A stretch of 64,000 bases of DNA from a virus (lineage: Duplodnaviria > Caudoviricetes): IMG/VR virus record IMGVR_UViG_3300044633_001982; one strand, given 5' to 3'. The notes under the pieces were generated by a model, which ran no database searches, was not told the DNA's origin, and saw nothing but the letters and a program-made list of their open reading frames with translations. A program made the position numbers and the translations under genes. Shown here piece by piece: positions 7,849-51,328 of this stretch; within the stretch, counting starts at the first letter, position 1, and each line of letters opens with the position of its first letter.

Positions 7849-7860
7849 ATTTGTTTATTA

Positions 7861-9506: not shown

Positions 9507-9521
9507 ATTTTTAATTTTAAA

Positions 9522-14347: not shown

Positions 14348-14370
14348 TTTATTTGTTTTTTTTATTTTTA

Positions 14371-14949: not shown

Positions 14950-14953
14950 TTTT

Positions 14954-17420: not shown

Positions 17421-17830
17421 AATAACTCAACAAATTCAATTATATTATTTTCAGGGTCTTTTGCGAAAAAAACTTTAACGGTTTTTTCATCTGAAATTAT
17501 TGGATTATTTATCACTGATAAACCATTGTCTATCATTATTTTGTGTAAATTTTCAGAATCTTTTACTGTTAGTGCGAAATGAGTATACCCATTAGAAAAC
17601 AAATTTTTTTCAATTAACTCACAATTTTTAAAAAATAAAAGTTCAACAATTGTAGAGTTATCTTTACCTAACTTAATAATTCTTGGGGACAATTCTTTAG
17701 AATTTAATATATGGTTTAAAAAGTGTCCACTTTCAATTTTATCATACATTATATCTAATCCTAAAATTTTATGATAGAACCAAATCATTCTATCGATATC
17801 ATTTACTACAATTCCAACGTGTCTAAACAT
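17417..17830 (-). CDS. VOC/glyoxalase-family protein
   Basis: HVGIVVND...FYHKILG, THFALTV, DPENNIIEFVE. Confidence 0.85.
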   Translation of the reverse strand: MFRHVGIVVNDIDRMIWFYHKILGLDIMYDKIESGHFLNHILNSKELSPRIIKLGKDNSTIVELLFFKNCELIEKNLFSNGYTHFALTVKDSENLHKIMIDNGLSVINNPIISDEKTVKVFFAKDPENNIIEFVELL

Positions 17831-19807: not shown

Positions 19808-19808
19808 A

Positions 19809-20603: not shown

Positions 20604-20606
20604 TTT

Positions 20607-22957: not shown

Positions 22958-22959
22958 AA

Positions 22960-25241: not shown

Positions 25242-25837
25242 ATTCCTGTACTTCCAAATCCGTTTTCACCACGGTCTTTATTTTCAACTTTACTTACTTT
25301 AACCAAATTAACATTTCTACCGGGATAACATTTGGATAAAACCGCTTGAGCAATTTTCATACCTTTAGTAATTTTAAATGATTCTTTATTTGTATTAAAC
25401 ACTATTACTTGTACCTCACCAGTGTACCCCTCATCAACAGTACCTGGACTATTAAGAACCATTAACCCTTGTTTAAGAGCTAATCCACTTTTTGACCTAA
25501 CCTGAATTTCAAAACCTTCAGGTATCTCAAATCTAATGCCCGTAGGTATTAAAGCTCTTCCAAAAGCTTCAATTGAAATTTCCTCTGTTGAGTATAAATC
25601 AAACCCACTGTCGGATACGTAATTATACTTTAAATCTAAATCAGTTTCCGATGAATAAGGTAAGTCAAGTTTTTTCATAGACTCTATCATTTTGTCTTCA
25701 AAGTCTTTTAAATCAATACCATAATCATCCGAAATTTGTTTATATAAATTCAAATTAGATTCTTTATCTAAAGATTCTTGAATTTTTTTCATTTCCTCAT
25801 ATAAATCAAAATCCTCGTCGTTAATATCTAAATTCAT
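25238..25837 (-). CDS. dut: dUTPase with acidic N-terminal extension
   Basis: DSGFDL, IPTG, QVRSKSGLA, PGTVDEGYTGE, KIAQ, RGENGFGSTG. Confidence 0.96.
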   Translation of the reverse strand: MNLDINDEDFDLYEEMKKIQESLDKESNLNLYKQISDDYGIDLKDFEDKMIESMKKLDLPYSSETDLDLKYNYVSDSGFDLYSTEEISIEAFGRALIPTGIRFEIPEGFEIQVRSKSGLALKQGLMVLNSPGTVDEGYTGEVQVIVFNTNKESFKITKGMKIAQAVLSKCYPGRNVNLVKVSKVENKDRGENGFGSTGI

Positions 25838-30471: not shown

Positions 30472-32031
30472 ATGAGTCAACAGAATATTAATCAATATGT
30501 CTTTAATAAGTGGAAATTAAATCCAAGTTGGAACAATTTGGACATGTCCTTAGCTTCTGATGAAAGAGATTTTAATGAAGAAGTTGTTTTTTCAACTCAA
30601 TTAATTGGAATAAACGATGGTAATAGATTACCAATTTATTTCGATTTAAATAACCCTAATTCTTCACAACAACCAACTTTAAATTATGGGGATTTCATGT
30701 CCGGAAATACTTTGGTTTCATTAAATTATTATAACCCAAATAATGAAAATATATCTTGTTTTACAGGTGATAGTTTATGTGATATTGGATTAGTTGGTAC
30801 CGATAATGGGTTAGTCCCTGAAATGTCAGGTGAAACAATATATTTTAGTATGGGATTATATAGTGGAACTACAAAATGGGATAGATATCATTTTGATAGA
30901 AGAACTAAATTAATTCCAATTACTGCATATACAACTGAAGATATTACTATAACACTTGAATCTATTATAGAACCAGGTTCTATTGTTGCGATATATAATT
31001 TAATATCTGAAGAAAATTTAGTTAATGATGTCACAATTAATTTTACAAATGTTTTAGGATATACTGGTGGGACTATTTTAGTTCAAACAGGTGTAACAAT
31101 ATCTTTAGGTAACTCTAGCGGGCAAACAATAGTAACTATTAATGAAAATTTCGATTCTTTAAATAGGACTTCATTGATAACAGGCGTGACCTCATCAGAA
31201 TCAGGAGGTGCGTACCAAATACAAGTAACCCCAAATCAAACGTTCGCCCCTGTCACTCCAACACCATTAATTACCCCAACAATTACTCCAACACCTAGCC
31301 AAACCCCAACACAAACTCCTAGTCAAACTGAAACCCCAACACAAACCCCAACACAAACTCCTAGTCAAACTGAAACTCCAACACAAACTCCAACACAAAC
31401 TCCTACACAAACCTCAACTCAGACTCCCACACAAACCTCAACTCAGACTCCCACACAAACTCCAACACAAACCTCAACTCAGACTCCTACACAAACCTCA
31501 ACTCAGACTCCTACACAGACACCAACACAAACTGAGACACCAACACAGACTCCTACACAGACACCAACACCTACACAGACACCAACACCTAGTATTACAC
31601 CAAGTATTACGCCTACAACTTATATAACTTATCATCTATTGGCACAAGATGGTTCAACAATCAGTATTCAAAACGGGGACAATATTACTTTATATAATTC
31701 GGCAATTACCCCAACACCGACTCAGACTCCAACTCAAACTCCAAGTCAAACTGCAACTCAAACTCAGACCCCAACTCAAACTCCAAGTCAAACTGCAACT
31801 CAAACTGCAACTCAAACCCCTACACAGACACAAACTCCTAGTCAAACTGCAACTCAAACCCCTACACAGACACAAACATCTACACCTACACAAACATTAG
31901 ACCTGTCTTCGACTCCAACACAAACTCCAACAACTACCCCAACTCCTACACCTGTTTATAATCGTATTTTGGTACAGGATGGGTCAACGTTAGCCGCACA
32001 AAACGGTGATTTAATTAATAAACAACCTTAA
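30472..32031 (+). CDS. Putative virion protein with mucin-like Thr/Pro/Gln repeats
   Basis: Globular N-terminus followed by two TPTQ/TPSQ repeat tracts; late motif upstream. Confidence 0.75.
   Translation: MSQQNINQYVFNKWKLNPSWNNLDMSLASDERDFNEEVVFSTQLIGINDGNRLPIYFDLNNPNSSQQPTLNYGDFMSGNTLVSLNYYNPNNENISCFTGDSLCDIGLVGTDNGLVPEMSGETIYFSMGLYSGTTKWDRYHFDRRTKLIPITAYTTEDITITLESIIEPGSIVAIYNLISEENLVNDVTINFTNVLGYTGGTILVQTGVTISLGNSSGQTIVTINENFDSLNRTSLITGVTSSESGGAYQIQVTPNQTFAPVTPTPLITPTITPTPSQTPTQTPSQTETPTQTPTQTPSQTETPTQTPTQTPTQTSTQTPTQTSTQTPTQTPTQTSTQTPTQTSTQTPTQTPTQTETPTQTPTQTPTPTQTPTPSITPSITPTTYITYHLLAQDGSTISIQNGDNITLYNSAITPTPTQTPTQTPSQTATQTQTPTQTPSQTATQTATQTPTQTQTPSQTATQTPTQTQTSTPTQTLDLSSTPTQTPTTTPTPTPVYNRILVQDGSTLAAQNGDLINKQP
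31250..31620 (+). repeat. Coding tandem repeat (TPTQ/TSTQ units, about 12 nt)
   Basis: Imperfect acacaaactcca-type units; boundaries approximate. Confidence 0.9.
31705..31955 (+). repeat. Coding tandem repeat (TPTQ/TPSQTATQ)
   Basis: Second Thr/Pro/Gln tract; boundaries approximate. Confidence 0.9.
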
Positions 32032-32036
32032 TAATA

Positions 32037-32044
32037 TATTTATA
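32037..32044 (+). promoter_or_regulatory. Putative late promoter TATTTATA
   Basis: 11 nt before the ATG at 32056. Confidence 0.6.
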
Positions 32045-32055
32045 AATAAAAAATT

Positions 32056-32643
32056 ATGGCAGATATTTTAATTTCTAATTTACCCCTTTACACAGGGGAT
32101 ACTAATGGTTCGTATTTAATTATGAACAACAGTGCTCAAACTATAACATATAAAGTTACAAAACAAACTTTTATTGATACTGGAGTGGCATCATATTCAT
32201 GGACAACAAACTATGCTAACTTAACAAATGGGGCGGAAAATTACCCAAGATGGGATACCGAAGTATTCAACTCTAACACAAATATTTTTGAGTTAGTTAA
32301 CTCAAGCGGGGCTGGTAATACAGGTGCAAGAATTTTTTTAAAAGAGTCTGGTTATTATGAATTAATAAGTCAGGTTCACCTTTTTGACGCATTTGGTAAC
32401 CAAGACCTTTTGGTAAAATATAACTCAGCGACTGGTTCAACTGATGCAATGTCTGTAGGTACATTAATTAGTGATGAAAAATTTGTGGAAACAACTGGTG
32501 ACAGATTAATTAACGGTACTATTTGTTTTTTCATATCTACCCCAACGTATATAACTATTTCAATAAATCCAAGTAATAATTCACCATTCCCTTCTAACGC
32601 AAACTCAACACCGACTAGAATTTTTGTTAAAAAATTACCATAA
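32056..32643 (+). CDS. Putative minor virion/fibre protein with a C1q/BclA-like C-terminal domain
   Basis: MADILISNLP...TYKVTK start typical of fibre-type proteins; IFLKESGYYELISQVHL beta pattern. Confidence 0.45.
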   Translation: MADILISNLPLYTGDTNGSYLIMNNSAQTITYKVTKQTFIDTGVASYSWTTNYANLTNGAENYPRWDTEVFNSNTNIFELVNSSGAGNTGARIFLKESGYYELISQVHLFDAFGNQDLLVKYNSATGSTDAMSVGTLISDEKFVETTGDRLINGTICFFISTPTYITISINPSNNSPFPSNANSTPTRIFVKKLP

Positions 32644-32687
32644 ATTTACTTTAATGGTTTTAAAAATTATTACTATATAAGTTAAAA

Positions 32688-34343
32688 ATGGCAATTAGAT
32701 TTTCAGGAAATACAAAAGAGACAGTTTACAACATAGTTAGTAAAACTTCCGATAATGTTGGATACTATAACCAATTGTATGGTGGATTTTATCAAGGATT
32801 TTTTAAATTATTTGGTTATGATTATGAAACTTTTCCAAACCGATGTAACAAAGGTTGGTCTGTTGAGATGTTGTTGAGAGCGAGACAAGAAGACCAATTT
32901 TTTCATACTTCGGGTCAAACAACTTTAAATGAGGTTTACCCAAACAACGACAATACTTTTTTTTATTTTGGTACAAGAGCTGAAAATAAATATTATCATC
33001 ATGCGTCGGGGTCTCCTGAATCTGATTCAGGGTACACAAGAGTTACAGAAGTATTGAGTGGGTGTCTAAAAACATGTGCATGTTCAGATACCGGAGTAAC
33101 AATTTCAAGATGTTTAGAAGATGTTTATGAACCATTAAATTATACAAGTCAACATAATGTTGAGTGTAATTGTGGGTGTTCTGAAACCTCAGTCGCAAAT
33201 CCGGATAAAGACCCGTTATTTGACTCAATGTCAAACACTTTATCGCTAAGACTTTTAGGTGACCCAAAAAATCCTAAAGTTTGTGTTAGAGTTCTTAAAT
33301 TTACGGGAGGATGTGAAACAACAGGAAGTTGTGAGACAACAGGAATTACTTACACAACAGGTTACACTATAACTGATTATTGTTCAAGTAAAACTATTTT
33401 TGATTACTGTTCATCAAGTCAAACTTATTTAAATAAAGAACATTGGTTTTTAATCGATTGTGTTTGGGAACGTAATTCTTATTATGATGAATGTGATTTA
33501 TTATACAGAGGAGGATTAGATTCTATTACCAATTTATATTATGTAAATTCATTGGCAGGAAATGCGGTTAGCTTAATTACAATACCGTACACACATTCAG
33601 GAGAGACTCCTGCAGACCAAATTGAAGTAGTTAATCTAAATGAGGAATGGTTGATTGAAAAGGACCAAAGATTAGGTTCTTTGAAGATATACATAAATGG
33701 TAGATTATTCTACGTTATTAACGGATTTGAAGAAGTAATCCCAAGAGGATTAAATACTGAAAAAGAAAAACAAATAGGGGTTCCCTTCAATATCGGATGG
33801 GGTGGAGGTACACAAGGATTAAGAGAAAGTTTAACTTTTAGAGAATGTCCGACTTCATTGTCTGGATTAACGTATCAACAAGACCCTGAATGTATGCCAA
33901 ACGAAACATTATCGGGGACATCCTTATCAGCGTTAACCACAAATATTTTTATTGAACCTAATTTTGCAGGTTCATTTGACGGAGCAATTTCACAATTTAG
34001 AATGTATACCGAACCTTTAACATACCCCGAAGTTGTTCATAATTTTGATATACTGAAAGGTAATTTTGAGTTGTTTGATTACAAATGCCCAAGTTGTTCT
34101 GATGGTGTAATAAATGATATAATTGGAGTTAGTTCAGGTACTGATATTATATTTTCATCTGATGAGTTTTCAGGAATGACATTTAATCTTTACTATTATA
34201 AAGATTCAGGAGAACCAAGATATGTGGTTGTTGAAAATGAAACTTTCCCATACATCATGAATACTTTGTCAGTACCTAATTGTTGTGGTAATAATTTTTA
34301 TTTTTATATTATTGAATTAGACCAAACATTCCTTTACACCTAA
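32688..34343 (+). CDS. Putative virion protein with LamG/ConA-like fold and Cys-rich segments
   Basis: LKIYINGRL...PFNIGWGGG...FDGAISQFRMYTEPLTYPEVVHNF; CLKTCAC and ECNCGC clusters. Confidence 0.55.
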   Translation: MAIRFSGNTKETVYNIVSKTSDNVGYYNQLYGGFYQGFFKLFGYDYETFPNRCNKGWSVEMLLRARQEDQFFHTSGQTTLNEVYPNNDNTFFYFGTRAENKYYHHASGSPESDSGYTRVTEVLSGCLKTCACSDTGVTISRCLEDVYEPLNYTSQHNVECNCGCSETSVANPDKDPLFDSMSNTLSLRLLGDPKNPKVCVRVLKFTGGCETTGSCETTGITYTTGYTITDYCSSKTIFDYCSSSQTYLNKEHWFLIDCVWERNSYYDECDLLYRGGLDSITNLYYVNSLAGNAVSLITIPYTHSGETPADQIEVVNLNEEWLIEKDQRLGSLKIYINGRLFYVINGFEEVIPRGLNTEKEKQIGVPFNIGWGGGTQGLRESLTFRECPTSLSGLTYQQDPECMPNETLSGTSLSALTTNIFIEPNFAGSFDGAISQFRMYTEPLTYPEVVHNFDILKGNFELFDYKCPSCSDGVINDIIGVSSGTDIIFSSDEFSGMTFNLYYYKDSGEPRYVVVENETFPYIMNTLSVPNCCGNNFYFYIIELDQTFLYT

Positions 34344-34379
34344 TTTTATTTTTATATTTTTTGGTTAAAAATACTAATA

Positions 34380-35624
34380 ATGAAAATTTTTATCCAAGTC
34401 GCGTCTTATAGAGACCCACAATTAATACCAACTATTAAATCCGCATTAGATAATGCCAAACATCCTGAAAATTTAATATTCGGAATTGCCAGACAATTTC
34501 ATATTGAAGATGGATTTGATAATTTGGATGAATATAGAGGTGATGACAGATTTAGAATTTTAGATATTCCATGTGAAGAATCTAAAGGGGCTTGTTGGGC
34601 TAGAAATCAAATACAACAACTTTATCAAAAAGAAGAATACACATTACAAATTGATTCTCACATGAGATTCGCTGAAAATTGGGATGTTGAAATGATTGAT
34701 ATCATTAAAAAGTTACAGAAAAAAGGACATAAAAAACCTTTATTAACAGGATATGTTCCATCTTTTGACCCTGACGATGACCCAAACTCTAGAGTTATGG
34801 AACCTTGGAGAATGGTTTTTGATAGATTCATACCTGAAGGGGCGGTATTTTTCCTACCTGAAGTAATCCCTGGATGGCAAAGTATGACAGAACCAGTTCC
34901 TGCAAGATTTTACTCAGCACATTATTGTTTCACATTAGGTAAATTTTCCAAAGAAGTACAACATGACCCTGAATTTTATTTTCATGGTGAGGAGATATCA
35001 ATTGCAGCTAGAGCGTACACACATGGTTATGATTTATTTCATATACATAAAATTCTTATTTGGCACGAATATACCAGAAAGGGAAGAACTAAACAATGGG
35101 ATGATGATAAAGATTGGGTAAGTAAAAATGATTATTGTCACAAAAAAAATAGAAGTCTATTTGGAATGGATGGTGAAGAACCAATGAACCATGGAAAATA
35201 TGGATTTGGTAAACAAAGGACATTAAAAGACTATGAAAAATATTCAGGGTTACTTTTTTCCAAAAGAGCAATCCAACAATGGACAATAGATAAACATTAC
35301 CCACCAAATCCTTATAATTTTAATTCTGAAGAAGAATGGATGAATTCATTCTCATCGATTTTTAAACATTGTATTGATTTACAATATTCTCAAGTACCTG
35401 AAAAAGATTATGAATTTTGGGTTGTTGCATTTCATGATGAAACAGATGAAACACTTTTTAGAAAAGATGCCGATAAATCTGAAATTGCAAGAATGATGGA
35501 TGACCCTGATGGTTATATAAAAATTTGGAGAGAATTTAATATGACTAAAAAACCAACATATTGGGTTGTTTGGCCATATTCAGAATCAAAAGGATGGGGT
35601 GAAAGAATAACAGGTAATTTATAA
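34380..35624 (+). CDS. GT60-like UDP-GlcNAc:polypeptide GlcNAc-transferase (PF11397-type)
   Basis: IFIQVASYRDPQL..T, SKGACWAR, LQIDSHMRF...WD, FHGEEISIAARAYTHGYD. Confidence 0.8.
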   Translation: MKIFIQVASYRDPQLIPTIKSALDNAKHPENLIFGIARQFHIEDGFDNLDEYRGDDRFRILDIPCEESKGACWARNQIQQLYQKEEYTLQIDSHMRFAENWDVEMIDIIKKLQKKGHKKPLLTGYVPSFDPDDDPNSRVMEPWRMVFDRFIPEGAVFFLPEVIPGWQSMTEPVPARFYSAHYCFTLGKFSKEVQHDPEFYFHGEEISIAARAYTHGYDLFHIHKILIWHEYTRKGRTKQWDDDKDWVSKNDYCHKKNRSLFGMDGEEPMNHGKYGFGKQRTLKDYEKYSGLLFSKRAIQQWTIDKHYPPNPYNFNSEEEWMNSFSSIFKHCIDLQYSQVPEKDYEFWVVAFHDETDETLFRKDADKSEIARMMDDPDGYIKIWREFNMTKKPTYWVVWPYSESKGWGERITGNL

Positions 35625-35626
35625 TT

Positions 35627-36469
35627 ATGGTTGAAATTTTTGATGGTTACTGTGAAGGATTGAAAGGAGGTCACTTTTCTAGTTACAGAAAAAACTTAGG
35701 AAATAAATTATTTATTTATTCTGTTAGTAGACTTATTGCCGATGAATTAAATTATGATTTAATTGTTCCTGATAATTCATTAATACGTAGAGAAGAATTA
35801 AGTGTTGGTCAATATGTTGAGCAAGTATTCCCATTTAAATCCATTACCGGAAAAGAGTCAATTGAAGGTCCAGTCATCTCAATTGGGGACACTGATGTAT
35901 TAACATTGAATACTGTCGAAAAAATGGTAGACCATTGTCGGGGACATAAAATTATTTCCGCCTCCTATTTTTCTAAGTACGATTATATTAAACCGTACAA
36001 AGAAAAAGTTAGAAATTTTCTTTCAGAAATAGTATTACCAAAAAGAAATGATGACGATTTGGTTTTGATGTTAAGAAATAGTAGAGACGATGGTAGATTT
36101 GTATTGCCTGATGAATATTACCTTAACATTTTGGAAAAAGAAAATTTTAAAAATTTATACGTTTCTTTTGACCATGTCTATAACCATAAAAGTATTTTAG
36201 ATAAATTACAAATTTATAATCCAAAATATATTGAGGGTTCAATTTTAGATGTGTTTAAAGAACTAACATCATTTAATAAAATAATTGCTTGTCAAGGTAC
36301 ATTTTCATTTTGGGTATGTTTCTTATCAAATGCGAGTAAAATATATTGGCCGGTCACTAACGATGGGCCAAATTCAAACAATAAAAATTTTGGAACTCAT
36401 GTTAATTTAAAAGTTGATGATGAAGACCGATATGTTCACATTAAAATTGATGACATTTATAAAAAATGA
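35627..36469 (+). CDS. Divergent GT11-like transferase
   Basis: NLGNKLFIY, LMLRNS in place of HxRRGD, IIACQGTFSFWVCFLS. Confidence 0.55.
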   Translation: MVEIFDGYCEGLKGGHFSSYRKNLGNKLFIYSVSRLIADELNYDLIVPDNSLIRREELSVGQYVEQVFPFKSITGKESIEGPVISIGDTDVLTLNTVEKMVDHCRGHKIISASYFSKYDYIKPYKEKVRNFLSEIVLPKRNDDDLVLMLRNSRDDGRFVLPDEYYLNILEKENFKNLYVSFDHVYNHKSILDKLQIYNPKYIEGSILDVFKELTSFNKIIACQGTFSFWVCFLSNASKIYWPVTNDGPNSNNKNFGTHVNLKVDDEDRYVHIKIDDIYKK

Positions 36470-37455
36470 AGACTATAAGAATAAGTAGAGCTAATTTTCC
36501 AGGTGTGGGGAATTTTTCATGGATGAATTTCTTTTATGAAATATTATCCAAAAAATATAATGTAATAATAGATTCTAAAAATCCTGATTTGGTTATTTAT
36601 ACTAACCAATTTTACAGAGAAAACGAATTAGATTTTTACACTAACGAAATTGTTAAAGGTATTCATGAATACAATGATAACGTAAAAAAAATATTCATAA
36701 GTGGTGAGGCAAGACCTGATTTCTTATCTCATTTAAATAAAGGGGAAAACTATTACGCTTTAGGATATGAACACCATGACCATGACAGATATTTAAGGTT
36801 CCCAACATATGTTTTAGACGCGCATGTACTCCATAATGAAGGAGGTCTATTTGAAAGTAATTTTGGTTGGTTAACCAAACCAAAAAAATACGAAGATATT
36901 AAACTAATAAAAAAACATTTTTGTAGTTTAGTTCAAGCAAGTTTTAATCCCGATAGAGACCAATTTTTTAATATTGTGGAAAAGTATCATTATATTAAAA
37001 GTTCAGGTCCGTATCGACAAACAATACCTGATTCAGAAACCTTAAATCCTCACAAATATCATAACTATTCCAATAAAGATTATATGGGAAAAATTGACGG
37101 GTTAACCTATAGGGATAAAATTAATTTTTTCTCAGACTGTACATTCAACATGGCTTTTCAATATACTAATACGGATTATCTAACTCAAGAAAAAATAATA
37201 CATGCATTCGCTTCTAATTCAATTCCAATATTTTATGGTAACCAATACATTGAAGAAGAAGGATTTAATCCTGAGTCATTTATCAATGCTCACAAATTTA
37301 AAAATTTTGATGAATTAGTCGATGAATTAAATACAATATATTCTGATAATAATAAATTAAAATCTTATTTTGAATCTCCTATTTTTAATGAAAATAAATT
37401 ACCAATTTATTTCGATGAGGATTACATTTTAGATTTTTTTAGTAAAATTATTTAA
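36466..37455 (+). CDS. GT10 alpha-1,3/4-fucosyltransferase (FutA-like)
   Basis: NPDLVI, ISGEARPDF, YLRFP, FCSLV, YLTQEKIIHAFASNSIPIFYG, FNPESFIN. Confidence 0.85.
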   Translation: MKTIRISRANFPGVGNFSWMNFFYEILSKKYNVIIDSKNPDLVIYTNQFYRENELDFYTNEIVKGIHEYNDNVKKIFISGEARPDFLSHLNKGENYYALGYEHHDHDRYLRFPTYVLDAHVLHNEGGLFESNFGWLTKPKKYEDIKLIKKHFCSLVQASFNPDRDQFFNIVEKYHYIKSSGPYRQTIPDSETLNPHKYHNYSNKDYMGKIDGLTYRDKINFFSDCTFNMAFQYTNTDYLTQEKIIHAFASNSIPIFYGNQYIEEEGFNPESFINAHKFKNFDELVDELNTIYSDNNKLKSYFESPIFNENKLPIYFDEDYILDFFSKII

Positions 37456-37456
37456 T

Positions 37457-38134
37457 ATGAAATCAATTTCTTACAGTTTATTTGGATTAGACTACAAATA
37501 TTACACAGGTGCTGAGAAAAATATTTTAATCAATCAAAAGTTATTACCTGATTGGGAAACGGTGATTTATTACCATCCTGAAATGATTCGTAACGAATAT
37601 ATTGATAAATTATCAAATATGGGGGCAAAAATGATTGACGTGTCGTCTTTTTCATTTGGTAATCGTCCTCCAAAAGATTACCCATTTTTTTGGAGATTTA
37701 TTTCTTTTTTTGATGACGGGATTACAATATCTAGAGATTTAGATAGTAGACTTTCTGAACGAGAAGTGGAATATATCAATAGATGGGTACAATCTAATAA
37801 AGATTATTTTATAATAAGAGACCACCCGTGGCATTCTCCAGTACCTAGTGGTTTATTTGGTATAATACGAAAAATTACTGATTTTGAGGACCATTTTAAT
37901 AGTTTTATTAGTAGTTCTGATTTGAGATGGGGGACTGACCAAGAAATTTTACATGAATATATGTCAAAAATTTCAGATGATAATATTTTTTACTGTGGGT
38001 ATGACAAACCTGAGACCTATATACGTAGAGATAATAAAAATTTTTTTATTGGAATTCAGTTAGATGAATACGATAACCCAACTAAACCAAGCGGGGAGCA
38101 ATGCCTGCAATATTTAAATGATTTAAATTTATAA
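37457..38134 (+). CDS. Hypothetical protein, possible glycan-modifying enzyme
   Basis: ISYSLFG, FWRF, SRDLDSR DxD motif, IIRDHPWH, GTDQ; lies in the GT operon. Confidence 0.55.
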   Translation: MKSISYSLFGLDYKYYTGAEKNILINQKLLPDWETVIYYHPEMIRNEYIDKLSNMGAKMIDVSSFSFGNRPPKDYPFFWRFISFFDDGITISRDLDSRLSEREVEYINRWVQSNKDYFIIRDHPWHSPVPSGLFGIIRKITDFEDHFNSFISSSDLRWGTDQEILHEYMSKISDDNIFYCGYDKPETYIRRDNKNFFIGIQLDEYDNPTKPSGEQCLQYLNDLNL

Positions 38135-38136
38135 AT

Positions 38137-38877
38137 ATGAGATACTGTTTTACAACACTAGCAATCAACGAACCTTATGAAACTATCACTCCTGAGTTTT
38201 ATAAAGAGTTACGTGAAAAAACTAAAGAATGTGAGTTTTTTATCACAACAAATAATGAACAATTAAGAAATCAAGGTGACAGAATTCACACAAAAATTGT
38301 TAACCCACCATTATATGATTCAAGGGGAGGATTTAATTTTAATTTAAATTTAAAAGTTTTATCTTTAAAACATATACTAGAACATCAGAAAGAAACTGGA
38401 AATAGTCCCGATTATATTATTTTTACTGATGGTGATTGGAGAATGCATGATGGATTTGATGAACAAAAAATATTAAACATGCTTGACCATATGGAACAAA
38501 ATAATGTTGATTTTTTGTTTGAAAGACCCGCACCAATTGGTCCTCACAAGTTAAATCCAAATGAAAGTTTTTTTAGAGATAAACTTTTTGATTACGATGT
38601 TTTTGACCATAATAAATGGGATGAGGCTCATGTGGTTAACGAACAATTTTTAGTTTTTAGGAACAATTCAAAATTTAAATTTTTTGTACAAAGATGGGAA
38701 CAATTTTTATGGTATAGTATCGCTAATGACATTAGAAATTATCCTGATGGTTTTGAAATTGGAATTTCAGCATTAGAAGCTGACATGAAATACCAATATG
38801 AAGGAGTTTTAAATCACTTCATTCAAAATTGTTTTTCGTTCTACACTAAACTTGGAGATTTTCACGTTAGATTCTAA
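38137..38877 (+). CDS. Putative GT-A glycosyltransferase
   Basis: LK...LK...DYIIFTDGDW DxD motif; operon context. Confidence 0.5.
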   Translation: MRYCFTTLAINEPYETITPEFYKELREKTKECEFFITTNNEQLRNQGDRIHTKIVNPPLYDSRGGFNFNLNLKVLSLKHILEHQKETGNSPDYIIFTDGDWRMHDGFDEQKILNMLDHMEQNNVDFLFERPAPIGPHKLNPNESFFRDKLFDYDVFDHNKWDEAHVVNEQFLVFRNNSKFKFFVQRWEQFLWYSIANDIRNYPDGFEIGISALEADMKYQYEGVLNHFIQNCFSFYTKLGDFHVRF

Positions 38878-39797
38878 TGAAAACTAAAATAGTAACCGCC
38901 TTATGGCTAGATGTCGCTGGGTACCCTTTCCAAGGGGCTAGCTCAGTTAGAAAAGATAGATATTATGGGTCTTTAATTAGTCATTGCCGTGGTATTAATT
39001 TTCCAGTTGTTTGTTACACTCACGAAAAAAATAAATCCGAAATTGAAAAACTTAAATTAGATTATAATTTATCTAATCTTGAAATTAAAATATTGGAATT
39101 ATCTGACATGAAGTATCATAAAAAAATAAAAGATGTTAGAGATAAAAATTTTGATACTGACTTAGATGGTAGAGGACCTGAAATAATGTGGGGAAAATTC
39201 CAAGTTCTTGAACAAGAGTTAGAAGGTTTTGATAGGGTCTATTGGGTTGACGGAGGATTACAACATCCAGGGATATTCCCGTGGATGTACTGTGTTCCAT
39301 ATGGGGATAAAAAATTTCATAATCCAAATGAAGTACCTGTGTGGAATAATAATCAAATATCTCAATATGATTTTACAAAATTATTCAATACTGAACTTTT
39401 CATAAAAATGAATGAGATTAGTGAGAATAAAGTTTTAAATTTAACCGCAACAAATCCTCAATCAGGATATGTTTTTAAAACTAAAGGAATAATTGATTAT
39501 GATATTAGACCATATTATCCTATTGCAGGTATGATTGGAGGAGATACTAAACAGTTAAAAAATTATATAAATGAGTATTGGAATTTTTGTGATAAAATTA
39601 TTGATAAAGAATTTTTATGTACAGAAGAATCAATAATGAAATTAGTTTATGATAAATTAAAAGACATTGTTCATCCTTTAATTTTTGACGTTCACCAAAC
39701 TGATGAACATGACCAATATCATTTTGAACTTTGGGACCCATCTTGGGGTAAACCTAAACCATTATACATGGTTTGGATAGACATTTTAAATAGTTAA
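38877..39797 (+). CDS. HtrL/YibB-like putative glycosyltransferase
   Basis: IVTALW, KFQVL...YWVDGG, AGMIGG, TEESIM; similar to the N-terminal half of 40661..42343. Confidence 0.6.
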   Translation: MKTKIVTALWLDVAGYPFQGASSVRKDRYYGSLISHCRGINFPVVCYTHEKNKSEIEKLKLDYNLSNLEIKILELSDMKYHKKIKDVRDKNFDTDLDGRGPEIMWGKFQVLEQELEGFDRVYWVDGGLQHPGIFPWMYCVPYGDKKFHNPNEVPVWNNNQISQYDFTKLFNTELFIKMNEISENKVLNLTATNPQSGYVFKTKGIIDYDIRPYYPIAGMIGGDTKQLKNYINEYWNFCDKIIDKEFLCTEESIMKLVYDKLKDIVHPLIFDVHQTDEHDQYHFELWDPSWGKPKPLYMVWIDILNS

Positions 39798-39801
39798 AAA
39801 T

Positions 39802-40674
39802 ATGAATGCGTATATTACTACCGGTATGAATTCAGGTTTGGGGGATATGTATTCAACAATCTATTCAGTATATCTAACACAAGAAAAATTAAAAGAGATG
39901 GGATATAAGGTTAAAACTTATGTTGATTTTGGCCTAAATCCTTATAAAATGAATAATGAAAATAGAGATGTTTTTTTTAAAATTTTTAAATTAGACAAGT
40001 TAGATAATTTTACATTTTTTACTAGTGGATTTAGTCCTCATGAAGGAAATTTTCCTGAAAGAAATGAAACTAAATTAGTTATTGATAATTCAAAAATATA
40101 TTATGTTTATGTTGATGAGATTATTGAGGGAGTGGAAGATTTAAATAATTTTCCTCATATTGAAAATTATAGAAAATGGATAATGTACGATGAGTGGCCA
40201 AAATTAAGTTTTTTAACTGACGAAGTGGTGTCATTCTGCGAAGAAAAACTAAAATCATTTCCTGAAAATTTTTATTGTGTACATTACAGACCTTTTGAAT
40301 TAAATAACCAAACTGAAGAATTATCAAATTCAATACAGTCAATTAAAAATTTTATTGAAAAAAATCAAGATAGACCAATATTTGTGTTTACACAATTTGA
40401 AATTTTAAAAAATGAACTTAAGCAATGTAATTATAAAAATTTATATTACAATGATTATGTTTATAAAGGTGATTTAAGTACAACAAGAAGTTTAGGATTA
40501 AGTGATGATGAATTAATGTATTTTTTTAAATCTACTTTATTTGAGATGTATGCAATGTCTAAATCTGAAAAAATATTTAGAATATGTAATTGGTGGTCTG
40601 TTTTTTTATTTTTTGCGGCATCGTACAATCAAACTAAATTAAGTAATAACATTAGATTTTTTGATTATGAGTAA
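39802..40674 (+). CDS. Putative O-fucosyltransferase-like (GT-B) protein
   Basis: SGLGDM at the N-terminus, CVHYR, IFVFT, EMYAMSKS pattern of NodZ/GT23/GT11-like enzymes. Confidence 0.45.
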   Translation: MNAYITTGMNSGLGDMYSTIYSVYLTQEKLKEMGYKVKTYVDFGLNPYKMNNENRDVFFKIFKLDKLDNFTFFTSGFSPHEGNFPERNETKLVIDNSKIYYVYVDEIIEGVEDLNNFPHIENYRKWIMYDEWPKLSFLTDEVVSFCEEKLKSFPENFYCVHYRPFELNNQTEELSNSIQSIKNFIEKNQDRPIFVFTQFEILKNELKQCNYKNLYYNDYVYKGDLSTTRSLGLSDDELMYFFKSTLFEMYAMSKSEKIFRICNWWSVFLFFAASYNQTKLSNNIRFFDYE

Positions 40675-42343
40675 GATAACTTTAGTTACAGGGCTTTGGG
40701 ATTTAAAAAGAGATGGGTTAAATGAAGGATGGGCGAGACCATTTAAAGAACACTATTTAGAAAAATTTAAACAACTTCTAACAATTGAGGAAAATTTAAT
40801 AATATTTGGAGACTCTGAGCTTGAAAAATTTGTTTGGGAAAACCGAAAATCTGAGAACACTCAATTTGTATTAAGAGAATTATCGTGGTTTAAAAATGAG
40901 TTTTTTGGCAAAATTCAAGGTATTAGAAATGACGAAAAATGGTATAATCAATCTTCATGGTTACCTGAGTCTACACAGTCAAAATTAGAATTTTACAACC
41001 CATTAGTGATGTCTAAAATGTTTCTTCTTCACGATGCAAAAATTTTAGATAAATTTAATTCTGATAAATTATTTTGGATAGATGCTGGTATAACAAATAC
41101 AGTTCACGTAGGGTATTTTACACATGATAATGTATTAAAAAAAATAGATAGTAAAATTACTAAATTTTCTTTCATTTGTTTTCCATACGATGCAAACAAT
41201 GAAATTCACGGGTTTTCATATCCTAAAATTAATGATTGGGCGAATGATGATGTAAGATTAGTTGGACGAGGAGGGTTTTTTGGAGGAACAAAAGAATCTA
41301 TTGCGGAAGTAAATTCCCTTTATTATGGGTTGTTAAATGAAACTCTATCTCAAGGTTATATGGGTACTGAAGAATCAATATTTTCAATAATGGTTTATAA
41401 GTACCCAAAAATTATAAATTATTTCGAAATAAATTATGATGGATTATTAGGTACATTTTTTGAAAATGCTAAAAATGAAATTTTAGAAGTAAAAAATAAA
41501 TTACCAATTAATTTGTATAATGGTTTAGATATCGATAAAACGTCTTTATATGTTATTGGTTTTAACAGTCCTAAACAACTTGAAACTTTAATTACTTCTA
41601 TGATATCGTATGACAAGGATTTCATAGAAAAACCAAAAAAATATCTTTTAAATAATTCTACTGATAGAACTACTGATGAACAATATATAAAAATATGTGA
41701 GTTACATAATTTTGAAATAATTTGGTCTGAAGAAAATTTAGGAATTTGTGGTGGTCGACAATTTATAGCTGAACATTTTGAAAAAAGTGATAGTGACTTT
41801 ATGTTTTTTTTCGAAGACGATATGTTTTTTTATCCTGAAGAAGGACAAGTATGTAAAAATGGATTTAATAGATATGTAAAAAATTTATATAACAAATCAT
41901 TAAACATTATTAAAAATTATAATTTTGATTTTTTAAAATTAAATTATACCGAATTTTTTGGTAATAATGGGACCCAATGGAGTTGGTATAATGTACCTCA
42001 GTCATTTAGAGAAAAACATTGGCCTGAAAATCCAAAATTACCTGAAATGGGATTGGACCCAAATTCTCCAAAAACTAAGTTTACATCAATAACATCGTAT
42101 GAAGATATACCTGTTGCTACAGGTGAAATATTTTATTGTAATTGGCCTCAAATAGTTTCCAAATCAGGAAATCAAAAAATGTTTTTAGAAACAAAATGGA
42201 ATCATCCGTATGAACAAACATGGATGAGTCACATGTTTCAAGAAACAGTCATTGGTAATCTAAATCCAGGATTATTGTTAATTACACCTACTGAACATAA
42301 CCGTTTTGAACATTATGATTCAAAATTAAGGAAAGAAAGTTAA
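40661..42343 (+). CDS. HtrL/YibB-like domain fused to a GT-A domain
   Basis: TLVTGLWDL, SKMFLL...FWIDAG, GGFFGG, TEESIF; C-terminal NLGICGGR...FFFEDD. Confidence 0.7.
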   Translation: MIMSKITLVTGLWDLKRDGLNEGWARPFKEHYLEKFKQLLTIEENLIIFGDSELEKFVWENRKSENTQFVLRELSWFKNEFFGKIQGIRNDEKWYNQSSWLPESTQSKLEFYNPLVMSKMFLLHDAKILDKFNSDKLFWIDAGITNTVHVGYFTHDNVLKKIDSKITKFSFICFPYDANNEIHGFSYPKINDWANDDVRLVGRGGFFGGTKESIAEVNSLYYGLLNETLSQGYMGTEESIFSIMVYKYPKIINYFEINYDGLLGTFFENAKNEILEVKNKLPINLYNGLDIDKTSLYVIGFNSPKQLETLITSMISYDKDFIEKPKKYLLNNSTDRTTDEQYIKICELHNFEIIWSEENLGICGGRQFIAEHFEKSDSDFMFFFEDDMFFYPEEGQVCKNGFNRYVKNLYNKSLNIIKNYNFDFLKLNYTEFFGNNGTQWSWYNVPQSFREKHWPENPKLPEMGLDPNSPKTKFTSITSYEDIPVATGEIFYCNWPQIVSKSGNQKMFLETKWNHPYEQTWMSHMFQETVIGNLNPGLLLITPTEHNRFEHYDSKLRKES

Positions 42344-42349
42344 TCTGTA

Positions 42350-42357
42350 TATTTATT
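42350..42357 (+). promoter_or_regulatory. Putative late promoter TATTTATT
   Basis: 13 nt before the ATG at 42371. Confidence 0.55.
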
Positions 42358-42370
42358 GTAAAAACAATAA

Positions 42371-42739
42371 ATGGAATTCTATATTGGTCAAAATACCACT
42401 TTACCTATATTAAAGATGCAAGTTGTTAAAGACGGTAAACACGATATTGACACTATGTTACAAATTATTGAGGAATCTGTATTATACTTTTCAATGAAAG
42501 ACATTAATAATGGAAGTTATAAAATATTAAATTCTTCTGCCGGTTTTGTTGAAAAAATATTTTTAGAACCAAACTCTGATGTTGAATATTATATTTACTA
42601 TAAATTTTCAAAAAATGACACGTCTAAATCAGGAAGATTTGAAGGTGAGTTTTTGTTAAAATCTGAAAATGGAACTCTTTTATTACCAATAAGAGATAAA
42701 TTATTCATAAACGTTACCGAATCAACAATAACCACTTAA
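42371..42739 (+). CDS. BppU-N-like single-domain structural protein
   Basis: F.I..N.TLP.LK start and [18 protein letters not shown]...[11 protein letters not shown] end. Confidence 0.5.
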
Positions 42740-44484
42740 TGGAATTTTTTATAAAAAAGAATGCGACGTTACCTTTATTGAAATTTGAAATATTTCAAGA
42801 TGGTAGGAGCGATTTTAATAACATACAAAATTTAAGCGGCGTAACCTCAAGTTATATAACATTAATTGACCCTGTAAATTCGGAAATAAAATTCGCAAGT
42901 AGACCATGTTCAATTGTTACAGGACAATCTGAGTATGATGACACAAAAATACTTTATTTTGTTGAGTATCAATTTAAAAACGAAGAAACAAAAAAATTAG
43001 GTAGATATGTGGTAGAATTATCAATAGTTGATACAAACGGTTCAGTTGTTTTTAAAATAAGAGATAGAGTTTTTGTTAATATAATTGATAGTTTTTCAAT
43101 AGATGGATACTCATTTGCAAATAGTTATGAGGTAGAGTATCCTTGTTGTGACCAAGTATTACCAATACCAATACCTGTAACCCCTCCAAACACACCTTCT
43201 AGCACTGCGACCCCAACAAGTACGGTAACAGTTACTCCAACTGTAACACCAACAACGACCTCAACTCCAACACCTACTCCAGATAATACTAAAACCCCAA
43301 CACCTACTTCTACTCCAACAATGTCCGCAACACTAACCCAAACACCAACTAACACAACTACTCCGACTAATACACCAACAATGACCTCAACATTAACTCA
43401 AACACCAACTAATACACCAACTAATACTCAAACTCCGACAACGACTACAACTCCTACAAATACAAAAACACCGACTAAAACACAAACTCCAACAAATACT
43501 ACTACCCCTACCCCTACTCCAACTGTAACTGTAACTCCTACAAATACTTCAACGCCAGCCATGACCCCGTCCGTAACTAATACGTCAACAGTTACACCTA
43601 CTAACTCAATTACGCCAACAAATACCCCTACTAACTCGATTACACCAACAAATACACCAACAAATACAATAACACCTAGTATTACTCCAACAAATACAGT
43701 AACCCCAACAATTACCCCAACAAAATTCCCAGTAACAACTGTGGTTGGTTCTTTTTATACTTTGGTTTATCCAAATGGTTCAATTTATAATACTGTTTGT
43801 CAATATGTTTACCCTGGCAATTATGTTAACAATTTTACAACTACCACACTAATTACGACAACCCCAACTTCTTGGTATTCAAAAGGATTTTCAACAACCA
43901 CAGGTGAAATTAGACATTTCTATTTTAACGGATATCAGACTATACGATATAATTCAAGTCCTAATTCATCAAATATAAGTTTATTAACTTTATCTGGAAA
44001 TTTTGACAGGTCATTTGTTGCTTTATCAACCACATCTCTTATTGTTTCTAAAAACAATTTTTCAGCAGGAAATGGAAATGAAATAAGACAAATATCTACA
44101 GAAAATTCTAGCTTTACATCACTTGCGGTATTACCATATGGAAGATTTACTACTGGTGGTATAATTAAAACAACAACAAATAGACTTATTGTTATTACGT
44201 CTAATGTTACTAATAACGACTTTTTATTAACTCAATATAATTTAAATTTACCATTGTCAAATCCATCTACAGTTGAAGTACAAATTAATTTAACAAATAA
44301 TATAAGTAACCCTTCAGGTATTTTTGTTTCAAATTCAGAGTTTTATGTATCGTCAGGGACTGGTCAAATTTATAATATATCTAAAACACCTCCGTACACA
44401 ATAACAAATGTTGCGTCATCTAATACACCGTTTAAAGGGTTTGGTCAAAATAGTGATATTTGGAATGTTCATTTTAGTGTGTAA
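42739..44484 (+). CDS. Putative virion fibre/appendage: BppU-N-like domain, Thr/Pro mucin-like stalk, C-terminal beta domain
   Basis: N-terminus paralogous to 42371..42739; about 190-aa TPT/TNTPT tract; beta-rich C-terminus. Confidence 0.7.
43160..43730 (+). repeat. Coding low-complexity repeat (TPT/TNTPT/TVTPT)
   Basis: Degenerate Thr/Pro repeats; boundaries approximate. Confidence 0.9.
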
Positions 44485-48846: not shown

Positions 48847-49557
48847 TCAATTTGACTTTTTAGTTTTAGATAAATAAAGTTCATTTATGAATTTCCAATT
48901 TACCGCATCCCAAAAATTTGTAATATATTCGTCTCTTTTATTTTGATATTTTAAATAATATGCATGTTCCCATAAATCTAACCCTAAAATTGGGAACCCA
49001 CCTCTGTCAAATATATTCATCAATGGATTGTCTTGGTTTTGAGTAGACATCACTTTTAATTTACCACTTTTTGTTATTACTAACCATATCCATCCAGAAC
49101 CAAATCTTTTTTTTGCAACAGACTCAAACCTTTCTTTAAATTCTCTATAAGAACCAAAATCTTTTTTAATTTTTTCTAAAATTTCACCGTATGGTTTTTG
49201 AGGTGTTGGAGATAACATTTTCCAAAAAAGTGCGTGATTAAATGCTCCACCCGCATTATTTCTAATTACGGTATTATATTTTGAAATTTGTTTAACAATA
49301 TTTTCTAACTCAACATCACCGTAATCTCTTTTTCGTAACGCTGAGTTTAATTTTTTTACGTACCCTTTATAATGTTTTTGATAATGAAACTTCATAGTTT
49401 CAGGGTCAATAAACCTACGAAGAGATGCATAACCATACGGTAATTTATCGATACCTATGGTTTTCATTTCATTGATAAAATACTTTGTTTCAGGTAATAC
49501 TATATCACCTGTTATTTTTTTCTGTAAAGATTCTGATAATAAATTTAATGATTTCAT
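48847..49557 (-). CDS. sod: Fe/Mn superoxide dismutase
   Basis: LPYGY, HYQKH, NHALFW, FGSGW, NQDNP, DLWEHAYY. Start reassigned to MKSL at 49557; TATTTATT at 49562-49569. Confidence 0.95.
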   Translation of the reverse strand: MKSLNLLSESLQKKITGDIVLPETKYFINEMKTIGIDKLPYGYASLRRFIDPETMKFHYQKHYKGYVKKLNSALRKRDYGDVELENIVKQISKYNTVIRNNAGGAFNHALFWKMLSPTPQKPYGEILEKIKKDFGSYREFKERFESVAKKRFGSGWIWLVITKSGKLKVMSTQNQDNPLMNIFDRGGFPILGLDLWEHAYYLKYQNKRDEYITNFWDAVNWKFINELYLSKTKKSN

Positions 49558-49570
49558 CAATAATAAATAC

Positions 49571-51328
49571 TTACTTACTATTGATTTCGTTAAGTATTTG
49601 TTCAACAATATCCGAGGACGTTCCGTCGTCACCCATTACAGTTCCTATTATTTTTTTCTTGTTATCTAAAATGTCATAAATTACCCCTTCAATTGTATTT
49701 TCAAAAATTGGGTAATATACGGAAACTGAATTTTTTTGACCATATCGGTACGCTCTATCTTCAGCTTGTGAATGGTCTGCGGGTACGAAAGATAAATCAT
49801 TCATAATACACGCCTCAGCCGCGGTTAATGTTAAACCAACACCTGCGGCTTTAATATTACCACAAAATACTTGAACTTTTTCATCAGTTTGAAATCTGTC
49901 AACAGCATCCTGTCTTGCGGGTTTTGTAGTTGACCCATCTAAATAAACTGATTTTTTACCAAAATGTTCATGTATTTTTTTTAGAGGTTCTGTAAAATTA
50001 CTAAAAATGATTACTTTTTTACCTTGTTCTAAAATATTTTCAGCTAACTCAATTGTTGTTGGTATTTTTTCTTCGGCAATAACTTGTCTTACTTTCATTA
50101 ATTTTGTAAACTGTATTGAAAGTGATTTAGATTCTTCTTGTCTATTATTATACCAATCATAGTACTCACCCATTAATCCTTCATAAAATTTTGATTTTAA
50201 TCTCAAATAAACAGGGGTCATTATTTTTTCAGGTAAATCTAAAACATCTGTTTTTAGTCTTCTTAAAATTTGACGAGAAGTTCTTTCTCTAAGTTCTTCT
50301 AAATTTGATGCACCTGTAACATTCCAAACTTTTTTATTACCAACCCTAAATTGATATCCGTTACAATATCTAATTGCGTACGCCATCCAATTCTGACTAA
50401 CAGGACTATCAATTAATTTTAAAAGATTGTAGTAATTCATTGGTCTTGATGTCATTGGAGTACCTGTTAATAACCAAAGTTTTTTAACATTCTTAGTTAA
50501 GTCCATTATAATTTTGGTTCTTTGTGCCTGAGCGTTAGAAACATAATGTGCTTCATCAATTATGATTAAATCAAAATTTGATTTGAATATTAATGAATTT
50601 TCTTTGTCCTTTGGGTCGTAAAAATTTTTAAGGATATCATAATTTGTAATTACAAAATCACTGTCCTCATATTTTTTACCTTCACAAATAAAAATATTTT
50701 TATCTGTATAATTTTTAATTTCTCTTTCCCAATTGATTTTTAAAGACGCTGGACAAATTATCAATATTTTTTTAGCACCACTTTCTAAACTTGCAATTAC
50801 TGTTGAGGTAGTTTTACCTAATCCCATATCGTCCGCTAAAATGAATTTATCATTTTTTAATAGTTTTTCTATCGCTTCTTTTTGGTGAGATAAGGGGGGT
50901 CGATTTTGATACTTAGAATAATCGACCTCAATTACATTTTCTTTATATTGTTTAACAATCGCGGCTTTAGGTATCCAAAAATCATGAATAGTTTCACCAC
51001 TATGAATCTTACCCCAAATATGATAAGATTTATCTTTTTCTATTAAAATTTTTTCTACATAAATTTTATCAGGCTCTTTTATAAATGGATTATCCTCGAC
51101 AAGTTTTTGTGAAAAATAAGAATCAATATCCACCCATTTTTTGGCAACTTTTGGAGTTGTGGTATAATAAGTTATTATATACTCACATTGAGCTCTAGTT
51201 GGGATGTGTTTTTTGTTTGTCTCACATTGTTTTTTAATTTTAAGTATATAGTTATTTGACCCTTCATAATTTTCTAAAATACTTAGGGCTTTTTGTTCAA
51301 TACTTAAATGTGAAGTTCCTGTTTCCAA
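49571..51328 (-). CDS. SNF2-family helicase/annealing ATPase
   Basis: LADDMGLGKT, ICPASL, IDEAH, LTGTP, QAEDRAYRYGQ; TTG start. Confidence 0.93.
   Translation of the reverse strand: METGTSHLSIEQKALSILENYEGSNNYILKIKKQCETNKKHIPTRAQCEYIITYYTTTPKVAKKWVDIDSYFSQKLVEDNPFIKEPDKIYVEKILIEKDKSYHIWGKIHSGETIHDFWIPKAAIVKQYKENVIEVDYSKYQNRPPLSHQKEAIEKLLKNDKFILADDMGLGKTTSTVIASLESGAKKILIICPASLKINWEREIKNYTDKNIFICEGKKYEDSDFVITNYDILKNFYDPKDKENSLIFKSNFDLIIIDEAHYVSNAQAQRTKIIMDLTKNVKKLWLLTGTPMTSRPMNYYNLLKLIDSPVSQNWMAYAIRYCNGYQFRVGNKKVWNVTGASNLEELRERTSRQILRRLKTDVLDLPEKIMTPVYLRLKSKFYEGLMGEYYDWYNNRQEESKSLSIQFTKLMKVRQVIAEEKIPTTIELAENILEQGKKVIIFSNFTEPLKKIHEHFGKKSVYLDGSTTKPARQDAVDRFQTDEKVQVFCGNIKAAGVGLTLTAAEACIMNDLSFVPADHSQAEDRAYRYGQKNSVSVYYPIFENTIEGVIYDILDNKKKIIGTVMGDDGTSSDIVEQILNEINSK

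Follow-up and report, generated by a model that had tools for sequence, protein, structure and literature searches.

Mucin-type O-glycans are started in protists by enzymes of glycosyltransferase (GT) family GT60 (PMC8724618; PMC3188802), which has so far been regarded as a protist-specific family, sister to the initiators of animal mucins. The characterised GT60 and GT27 enzymes act on unstructured segments rich in Ser, Thr and Pro, and GT60 is said to be without the ricin-like C-terminal domain of GT27 (PMC8724618). Virion glycosylation by phage enzymes was also known already: in mycobacteriophages (Freeman et al. 2023, cited in PMC12619734), phage transferases decorate the phages' own structural proteins, and a loose connection between glycoproteins and an operon homologous to the one described here was made in 2018. 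The window (the whole stretch of DNA that was analysed, 64 kb of IMG/VR record IMGVR_UViG_3300044633_001982) belonged to a large, uncultured, contractile-tailed freshwater phage and carried a block of eight plus-strand genes (34380–42343) headed by a GT60-type gene, together with two genes for proteins with long Thr/Pro tracts. We consider it reasonably probable that this block represents a phage-encoded, cytoplasmic, mucin-type protein O-glycosylation module acting on the Thr/Pro tracts of the phage's own tail appendages. Mycobacteriophage glycans reside at the C-termini of capsid and tail-tube proteins (as cited in PMC12619734), whereas the likely acceptors here would be long internal Thr/Pro stalks, with GT60 as the initiator. 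The GT60 initiator, the fixed HtrL+GT-A partner and the Thr/Pro acceptors described below were not found in the literature searched. An account of the same DNA drawn up from its letters (the preliminary description) had proposed a pathway of this kind; its observations were confirmed, all its open reading frames (ORFs) being recovered at the same coordinates, and its interpretation was partly supported.

The leading gene of the block (34380–35624, plus strand) encoded a 414-aa GT60-type polypeptide N-acetylhexosamine (HexNAc)-transferase-like enzyme. It matched PF11397 (218.9 bits against a cut-off of 21; E 1.7e-64) and phrog_24687 (2.4e-171), and ASYRDP, GACWAR, QIDSHMRF and FHGEE, the motifs from which a PF11397/GT60-like enzyme had been claimed in the preliminary description, were all present in its translation. 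The AlphaFold model (built from 14 homologues; pLDDT 87) displayed a GT-A catalytic domain (aa 1–324) and a beta-rich C-terminal domain of ~90 aa (aa 325–414), the latter conserved and outside the Gnt1 alignment. The comparison of a predicted structure with GT60 and GT27, which the preliminary description had proposed, returned Gnt1 at the top, followed by polypeptide N-acetylgalactosaminyltransferase (ppGalNAc-T) entries: (i) among Swiss-Prot models, Dictyostelium Gnt1 was the best match (E 6e-24, TM 0.63, residues 2–324), and (ii) among solved structures, ranks 1–29 were all ppGalNAc-T (Z 19–23, ~270 residues at ~3.5 Å), with the families after them at Z 17–18. Sequence searches against solved structures with the protein and with its 14-sequence profile gave nothing meaningful, fold comparison alone being informative there. 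D92-S93-H94 (DxH) and H229 were invariant in 14 phage GT60 sequences sharing 45–77% identity. By family match, predicted fold and DxH/His motif, ORF 34380–35624 is thus a member of GT60, and its kinship with GT27 was supported by sequence and fold. A complex prediction of the enzyme with 66 residues of Thr/Pro tract and Mn scored 0.01 and carried no weight either way.

The phage enzyme shared PF11397, the GT-A fold and DxH with the protist GT60 enzymes (Dictyostelium Gnt1 and the Golgi pp-alpha-GlcNAc-T of Dictyostelium and T. cruzi), and protist mucins had Thr/Pro-rich unstructured acceptors like the candidate tracts of the phage. Gnt1 is soluble and cytoplasmic, as the phage enzyme is predicted to be, but the phage enzyme had in addition the beta-rich ~90-aa C-terminal domain and the fixed HtrL+GT-A partner. 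GT27 of animals and apicomplexans, which initiates on dense Ser/Thr/Pro domains, had the DxH metal site in common with the phage enzyme, but the identity was 10–17%, no ricin-type lectin domain was detected in the phage enzyme, and the latter was neither a Golgi membrane protein nor a GT27 member by sequence. The PF11397 family comprised 4,435 clusters at 50% identity. Giant GT60 homologues (P0245, P0246, P0249 and others) of up to 2,461 aa were also found, with two to four matched stretches each, corresponding to tandem GT60 domains.

The long Thr/Pro tracts reported in 30472–32031 and 42739–44484 were borne out by composition, and these two were the only Thr/Pro-tract ORFs in the 64 kb at a fixed threshold. 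Thr/Pro protein 1 (519 aa; 30472–32031, plus strand) was composed of an anchor-like N-terminal domain of ~150–250 aa and two T/P/Q tracts: aa 250–393 (144 residues; nt 31219–31650; 59 Thr and 29 Pro) and aa 405–501 (97 residues; nt 31684–31974; 38 Thr and 15 Pro). Thr/Pro protein 2 (581 aa; 42739–44484, plus strand) was composed of an Ig-like, BppU_N-like N-domain (aa 1–120), a tract of 207 residues (aa 135–341; nt 43141–43761; 90 Thr and 41 Pro) and a C-domain (aa 342–581). Thr plus Ser accounted for 46–50% of the 144-, 97- and 207-residue tracts, the averages for window ORFs being 6.7% Thr and 4.1% Pro, and the DNA under the tracts consisted of imperfect tandem repeats (periods 12–60 in protein 1). 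Each tract of protein 1 was followed by a short LxxQDGS-type motif, L(L/V)xQDGS...QNGD (31651–31683 and 31975–32028); in XacN1 ORF325 (L163, aa 3115–3128), RILEDGE stood immediately behind a Pro/Thr linker, and this post-tract motif may be a conserved stalk-ending element.

The N-domain of protein 1 (which matched phrog_15511) was common to 338 proteins with differing C-termini (beta-propeller, DUF285, Laminin_G_3/ConA-like), and an Atlas search with this domain gave no usable match. The N-domain of protein 2 was modelled (pLDDT 74) as an Ig-like sandwich, with phage baseplate, tail-fibre and BppU proteins as its best PDB/BFVD matches (BFVD BppU N-domain proteins at ~2e-4; phage baseplate chains at 3e-4 to 4e-3). 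Directly upstream lay a gene for a small Ig-like protein (122 aa; 42371–42739, plus strand), a paralogue of this N-domain (29% identity to aa 1–118 of 42739–44484) with an Atlas lead to BppU_N (0.95). PF10651 (BppU_N) matched neither 42371–42739 nor the protein 2 N-domain at E up to 0.1, and both are labelled BppU_N-like rather than members because the resemblance lies at the fold and feature level. The protein 2 C-domain was nearly unique, having 3 homologues in 5.8 billion proteins; receptor-binding tips are often nearly unique in sequence. From their domain architecture, variable C-termini, BppU-like fold and shared TATTTAT element (see below), we infer that the repeat proteins are tail-appendage parts of the virion.

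The transferase block was co-oriented with these appendage-like genes and lay between them. Upstream of it, the transcription unit of protein 1 also contained a 195-aa small ORF (32056–32643, plus strand) without a Pfam or PHROGs family match, and next came a 551-aa Cys-rich, lectin-like fibre module (32688–34343, plus strand; weak Laminin_G_3; phrog_8510 'virion structural protein'). In a relative with a 96% identical family-B DNA polymerase (PolB), a single 979-aa ORF just ahead of PolB (L081:2649–5585, plus strand) combined the protein 1 N-domain, a Cys-rich module like that of 32688, a 125-aa Thr/Pro tract and a new C-domain, and GT60 was absent within 10 kb of this fused ORF, which demonstrates that fibre parts are shuffled as modules and that the transferase block has been relocated.

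The phage comparison covered 76 IMG/VR loci with the GT60 enzyme, 40 after dereplication. The block had been called a GT operon in the preliminary description, and sequence-level GT support was obtained for four of its eight ORFs: (i) the GT60 gene; (ii) a weak GT11-like or phage glycosyltransferase-like ORF (280 aa; 35627–36469; PF01531 at E 0.018, below the cut-off; phrog_2644 at 2.4e-4); (iii) a GT10 fucosyltransferase-like enzyme (329 aa; 36466–37455; PF00852 at 8.6e-11; FucT_N at 4.3e-5), paralogous to 22142–22957; and (iv) a two-domain HtrL_YibB plus GT-A (GT2-like) protein (560 aa; 40661–42343; PF09612 at 58.6 bits against a cut-off of 24.1, E 9.5e-16; PF00535 at 0.0078). One more ORF (306 aa; 38877–39797) was HtrL/YibB-like by Atlas features (match 0.97, to a cluster with PF09612 in 51% of members) and by its 28% identity to XacN1 ORF332. 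The term did not extend to the other three, all in the variable cassette, which had no assignable family and gave nothing significant against Pfam, PHROGs and NCBIfam: two ORFs of 225 and 246 aa (37457–38877, the second starting at 38137), with homologues in 5/76 and 8/76 loci, and one of 290 aa (39802–40674), with a homologue in 1/76. The two-domain protein matched TIGR02192 (3.2e-15) at 56.6 bits, far under the NCBIfam equivalog cut-off of 264.9, and is therefore not YibB itself. No transmembrane segments were detected in the eight block proteins, all of which are predicted to be soluble, with GT60 in the cytoplasm.

The HtrL+GT-A fusion was the conserved partner of GT60, accompanying it in 65 of the 76 phage loci, while the genes between the two were replaced even among close relatives, where methyltransferases, a GT2 and a rhamnosyl-O-methyltransferase-like gene were included in the cassette. 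The BppU-like small gene and the fused Thr/Pro paralogue lay downstream in 41/76 loci, with PolB next. After dereplication (40 loci), the direct upstream neighbour of GT60 was Thr/Pro-rich in 16/38 (42%), against 12.8% of all neighbours (p 7e-6), a statistic that overstates independence because the loci share ancestry; some Thr/Pro tracts in these relatives exceeded 1,000 residues. The idea that Thr/Pro proteins bracket the enzyme held in the window and applied frequently, but not as a rule, since in complete relatives Thr/Pro genes were also located tens of kb from GT60.

The co-occurrence of GT60 with Thr/Pro proteins, put forward as a check in the preliminary description, was found as enriched adjacency in phages and, independently, in bacteria. 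The bacterial set was compiled by profile search with one genome per species (80 loci), of which 66 with GT60 identity ≤57% were kept, thereby dropping likely mis-binned phage contigs. Fifteen Thr/Pro-rich genes were counted in the 152 kb within 2.5 kb upstream of GT60, where 1.6 were expected, against 10 in the other 961 kb (Poisson P 1.7e-10, ~tenfold enrichment upstream of GT60), and they were distributed over at least 9 family-level lineages in several phyla (including Gemmatimonadaceae, Cytophagales, Saprospiraceae, Vicinamibacterales, Opitutaceae, Sphingomonas and Chthoniobacter). The HtrL+GT-A gene often lay directly downstream of GT60 in bacteria, and in Gemmatimonadaceae, Jiulongibacter/Arcticibacterium, Vicinamibacterales and others the same pair stood in the same order behind a Thr/Pro-tract gene; the acceptor-like proteins of these triads differed in that they were not phage proteins, some having PqqD plus a hydrophobic segment, Tat-like leaders or a Por secretion tail. 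On these gene arrangements, the triad is the strongest comparative argument for the tracts as the probable substrate, and no characterisation of it was found in the literature searched. Two Gemmatimonadaceae genes directly upstream of GT60 plus HtrL+GT-A (L188:9212–9952 and L178:8438–9232, both plus strand) encoded a PqqD domain (PF05402, 32 and 26.7 bits against a cut-off of 23.4), a hydrophobic segment and a Thr/Pro tail. In pathways for ribosomally synthesized and post-translationally modified peptides, PqqD domains serve to recognise the peptide, and the product may therefore be a glycosylated membrane-anchored protein or peptide.

Among cultured phages, GT60 was present in Xanthomonas phages XacN1 and Xoo-sp13 and in two Stenotrophomonas jumbo phages at 46–48% identity. 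The XacN1 (AP018399.1) operon ORF334 to ORF330 shared with the window the GT60 gene (ORF334, 48–49% identical), the HtrL+GT-A fusion (ORF330, 40%) and a counterpart of 38877–39797 (ORF332, 28%), and it adjoined GT9, baseplate wedge genes and a gene for a 3313-aa protein with a Pro/Thr linker; it differed in having a carbamoyltransferase and in being without the GT10/GT11-like genes of the window. This carbamoyltransferase (ORF333, L077:13409–15706, 765 aa) was encoded between the GT60 and HtrL-like genes, which suggests that the XacN1 glycan carries carbamoylated sugars. XacN1 virions display at least 2 periodate-Schiff-positive glycoprotein bands, which were credited by the authors to ORF328/ORF334, and neither the GT60 family nor Thr/Pro acceptors are recognised in that paper (PMC5852040).

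The units flanking the block had been described as carrying late motifs, and this stood for TATTTAT and not for the T4-type TATAAATA. Within 100 nt upstream of window gene starts, TATTTAT was seen 13 times against 4.8 expected, a count reached by 3/1000 shuffles, and the sites lay 11–48 nt (once 79 nt) ahead of starts, e.g., 30472, 32056, 42371, 53202, 58898 and 60956. The element preceded 30472, 32056, 42371 and the tail sheath gene, and none was present ahead of GT60; it may serve structural genes as a promoter element. Upstream of 30472, TATTTAT was at 13 nt and TATAAATA at 33 nt; TATAAATA/TATTTAT stood directly upstream of 32056, and TATTTAT 21 nt upstream of 42371. TATAAATA was rejected as a late promoter mark, as it was not enriched in the window (20 seen against 17.4 expected) or upstream of starts (5 against 2.9). 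At three sites (near 1129, 32037 and 48835), TATTTAT formed the palindrome TATTTATAAATA.

Given the observed enzyme family and fold, the tracts, the conserved gene pair and the association with Thr/Pro proteins, we infer the donor, acceptor residue, order of transfer, virion location and physical consequence as follows. Late in infection, the metal-dependent GT-A enzyme GT60 (DxH) would move HexNAc, most likely from host UDP-GlcNAc, onto Thr (and Ser) hydroxyls of tail-appendage proteins encoded by the phage itself, within their disordered Thr/Pro tracts, and the two proteins flanking the block would be among these acceptors. The HtrL+GT-A fusion would put on the next sugar(s) and so form the core, and the fast-changing cassette (GT11-like, GT10, HtrL-like and the three ORFs without a family) would lengthen the glycan, perhaps with deoxyhexose and ulosonic-acid donors from the sugar-pathway island (see below). 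The outcome would be stiff, protease-resistant, strain-variable glycosylated stalks bearing distal domains.

Several observations weighed against this module. The presence of sugar on the Thr/Pro proteins is predicted here from genes, and many proteins that carry no glycan also have Pro/Thr linkers. The three cassette ORFs without a family had no recognisable transferase signature. The adjacency in phages was largely inherited synteny within one lineage, the loci not being independent, and related loci were likewise counted in the bacterial enrichment, with Gemmatimonadaceae contributing 5 of the 15. In complete or near-complete relatives, Thr/Pro genes were found at 2–6 dispersed loci (by the TPTxTPT DNA pattern), and one relative had no Thr/Pro gene within 70 kb of GT60; with the genes so dispersed, GT60 would act in trans on several proteins. 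GT60 was core to the lineage (4/5 records), so that no presence/absence contrast was possible within it; GT60-less loci near PolB were considered as a contrast set and dropped, GT60 being elsewhere in the same records. For XacN1, the link between bands and ORF334 is the authors' attribution, the bands not being assigned to proteins (PMC5852040).

Two other readings kept the transferases and changed the target. The glycans might instead be placed elsewhere on the virion, on capsid, sheath, tube or folded fibre domains, and the tracts would then be simple flexible linkers that happen to share the fibre module; the distance of some Thr/Pro genes from GT60 in relatives, the position of the block at the boundary of structural and replication genes, where fibre genes are expected anyway, and the mycobacteriophage glycans on capsid and tail-tube C-termini (as cited in PMC12619734) are compatible with this, but the same gene pair was located directly behind Thr/Pro-tailed genes in unrelated bacteria that have no fibre module, and the GT60/GT27 enzymes characterised so far target unstructured Ser/Thr/Pro-rich segments, which makes such a target rather unlikely. 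That the cluster modifies host proteins or the host envelope, or builds a free glycan, in host takeover or superinfection exclusion and not for the virion, is unlikely too: the scanned ORFs yielded no family of membrane-anchored transferases, flippases, polymerases or lipid carriers, the block was embedded among co-oriented appendage-like genes, and XacN1 virions carry glycoproteins, even though PHROGs lists the family of the GT60 ORF under 'moron, auxiliary metabolic gene and host takeover', HtrL/YibB was named after a lipopolysaccharide-core locus (Pfam/NCBIfam names), and GT60 had no TATTTAT element of the structural genes.

The chemistry of the acceptor could also differ from that of the module proposed above. 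The nearest characterised fold relative was the Skp1-hydroxyproline GlcNAc-transferase and the tracts contain 29+15 and 41 prolines, as would suit an acceptor hydroxyproline formed by prior hydroxylation of tract prolines, as with Gnt1 on Skp1; this is quite improbable, as other GT60 members act on Thr/Ser, and the prolyl-hydroxylase-type domain PF13640 was absent in a 100%-complete relative, two 76–82% complete relatives and XacN1, in a scan that was positive in 2/14 control genomes. It is highly improbable that the transferases hypermodify phage DNA bases to evade restriction. Phage DNA glycosylation is well known (cited in PMC12619734), PolB adjoined the block and a dUTPase/dCTP-deaminase-like gene abutted the left island, but GT60/GT27-fold enzymes are polypeptide transferases, the bacterial homologues stood beside Thr/Pro proteins and not DNA-metabolism genes, and Pfam scanning of all but about a dozen short window ORFs matched no base-hydroxymethylase family.

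A second set of sugar genes, an island of nucleotide-sugar pathways and further transferases assigned by Pfam matches, was located at 5982–25241 (minus strand). It contained GDP-mannose 4,6-dehydratase, DegT aminotransferase, epimerase, NeuB, SIS, CMP-type cytidylyltransferase, Maf/MptE-like PF01973 and methyltransferase genes; eight further transferase-like ORFs were present, seven of them above the Pfam cut-off, and the transferases included GT11, GT10, GT25, two GT2, a GT2-like+GT4 fusion and a weak GT1-type match. This gene content could supply donors and caps for the block. No Wzx/Wzy-type, flippase, polymerase or lipid-carrier family occurred among the Pfam matches of the 30 ORFs in or beside the island (five unmatched), and a soluble protein acceptor is expected because the block proteins are predicted to be soluble and no lipid-carrier machinery was matched. 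The Maf/MptE-like ORF (20607–21344, minus strand; PF01973 at 2.7e-16, with a weak CST-I sialyltransferase match) adjoined the CMP-type cytidylyltransferase and NeuB genes and may act as a transferase, either adding an ulosonic-acid cap or O-linking sugar directly to protein, by analogy with flagellin glycosylation. The dUTPase/dCTP-deaminase-like gene (25238–25837, minus strand) and a PhoH gene (8769–9506, minus strand) lay within or abutting the island.

The window (29% G+C, dense coding) further encoded a 1061-aa tail sheath (phrog_23 at 3.9e-56), a T4-type baseplate protein and PolB. Megablast of the transferase block against cultured phages gave no match, the window having no near cultured relative, while metagenomes, IMG/VR included, yielded numerous relatives, on contigs of as much as 293,850 bp (CheckV 100% complete). 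The published freshwater moraphages (200–307 kbp, Bacteroidota hosts, four core transferase families, according to PMC12619734) are a possible identity for this lineage, which agrees with them in size, habitat, Bacteroidota link and core transferases. The closest 'bacterial' GT60 matches (64–67% identity) were on contigs of metagenome-assembled genomes of Saprospiraceae and other Bacteroidota (L164–L172; 33–39% G+C, one of 230 kb), which are probably mis-binned phage DNA and whose binning hints at Bacteroidota/Saprospiraceae as the host group. An Fe/Mn superoxide dismutase gene (48847–49632, minus strand; Sod_Fe_C at 1.4e-40, Sod_Fe_N at 5.5e-22) lay between a helicase gene and a head-tail adaptor-like gene.

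A broader proposal is advanced more tentatively: GT60 plus HtrL+GT-A may be an old and widespread prokaryotic and phage module for cytoplasmic mucin-type O-glycosylation of Thr/Pro tracts, which in the jumbo lineage would have been expanded by a rapidly exchanging cassette and phage-made deoxyhexose and ulosonic-acid donors into a strain-variable glycocalyx of the tail appendages. The mucin-type module proposed for this phage can be tested directly in XacN1, a phage in culture for which glycoproteins have already been reported. If it is true, tailed phages, among them a jumbo lineage abundant in fresh water and the Xanthomonas and Stenotrophomonas phages already in culture, would make mucin-like stalks by means of the protist mucin-initiator family, and virion glycosylation would extend well past the mycobacteriophages. 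The very long Thr/Pro tracts of phage fibre genes would be accounted for, with a bearing on phage stability, host recognition and immune recognition, and GT60 would gain a prokaryotic and viral past that matters for how eukaryotic mucin glycosylation arose.

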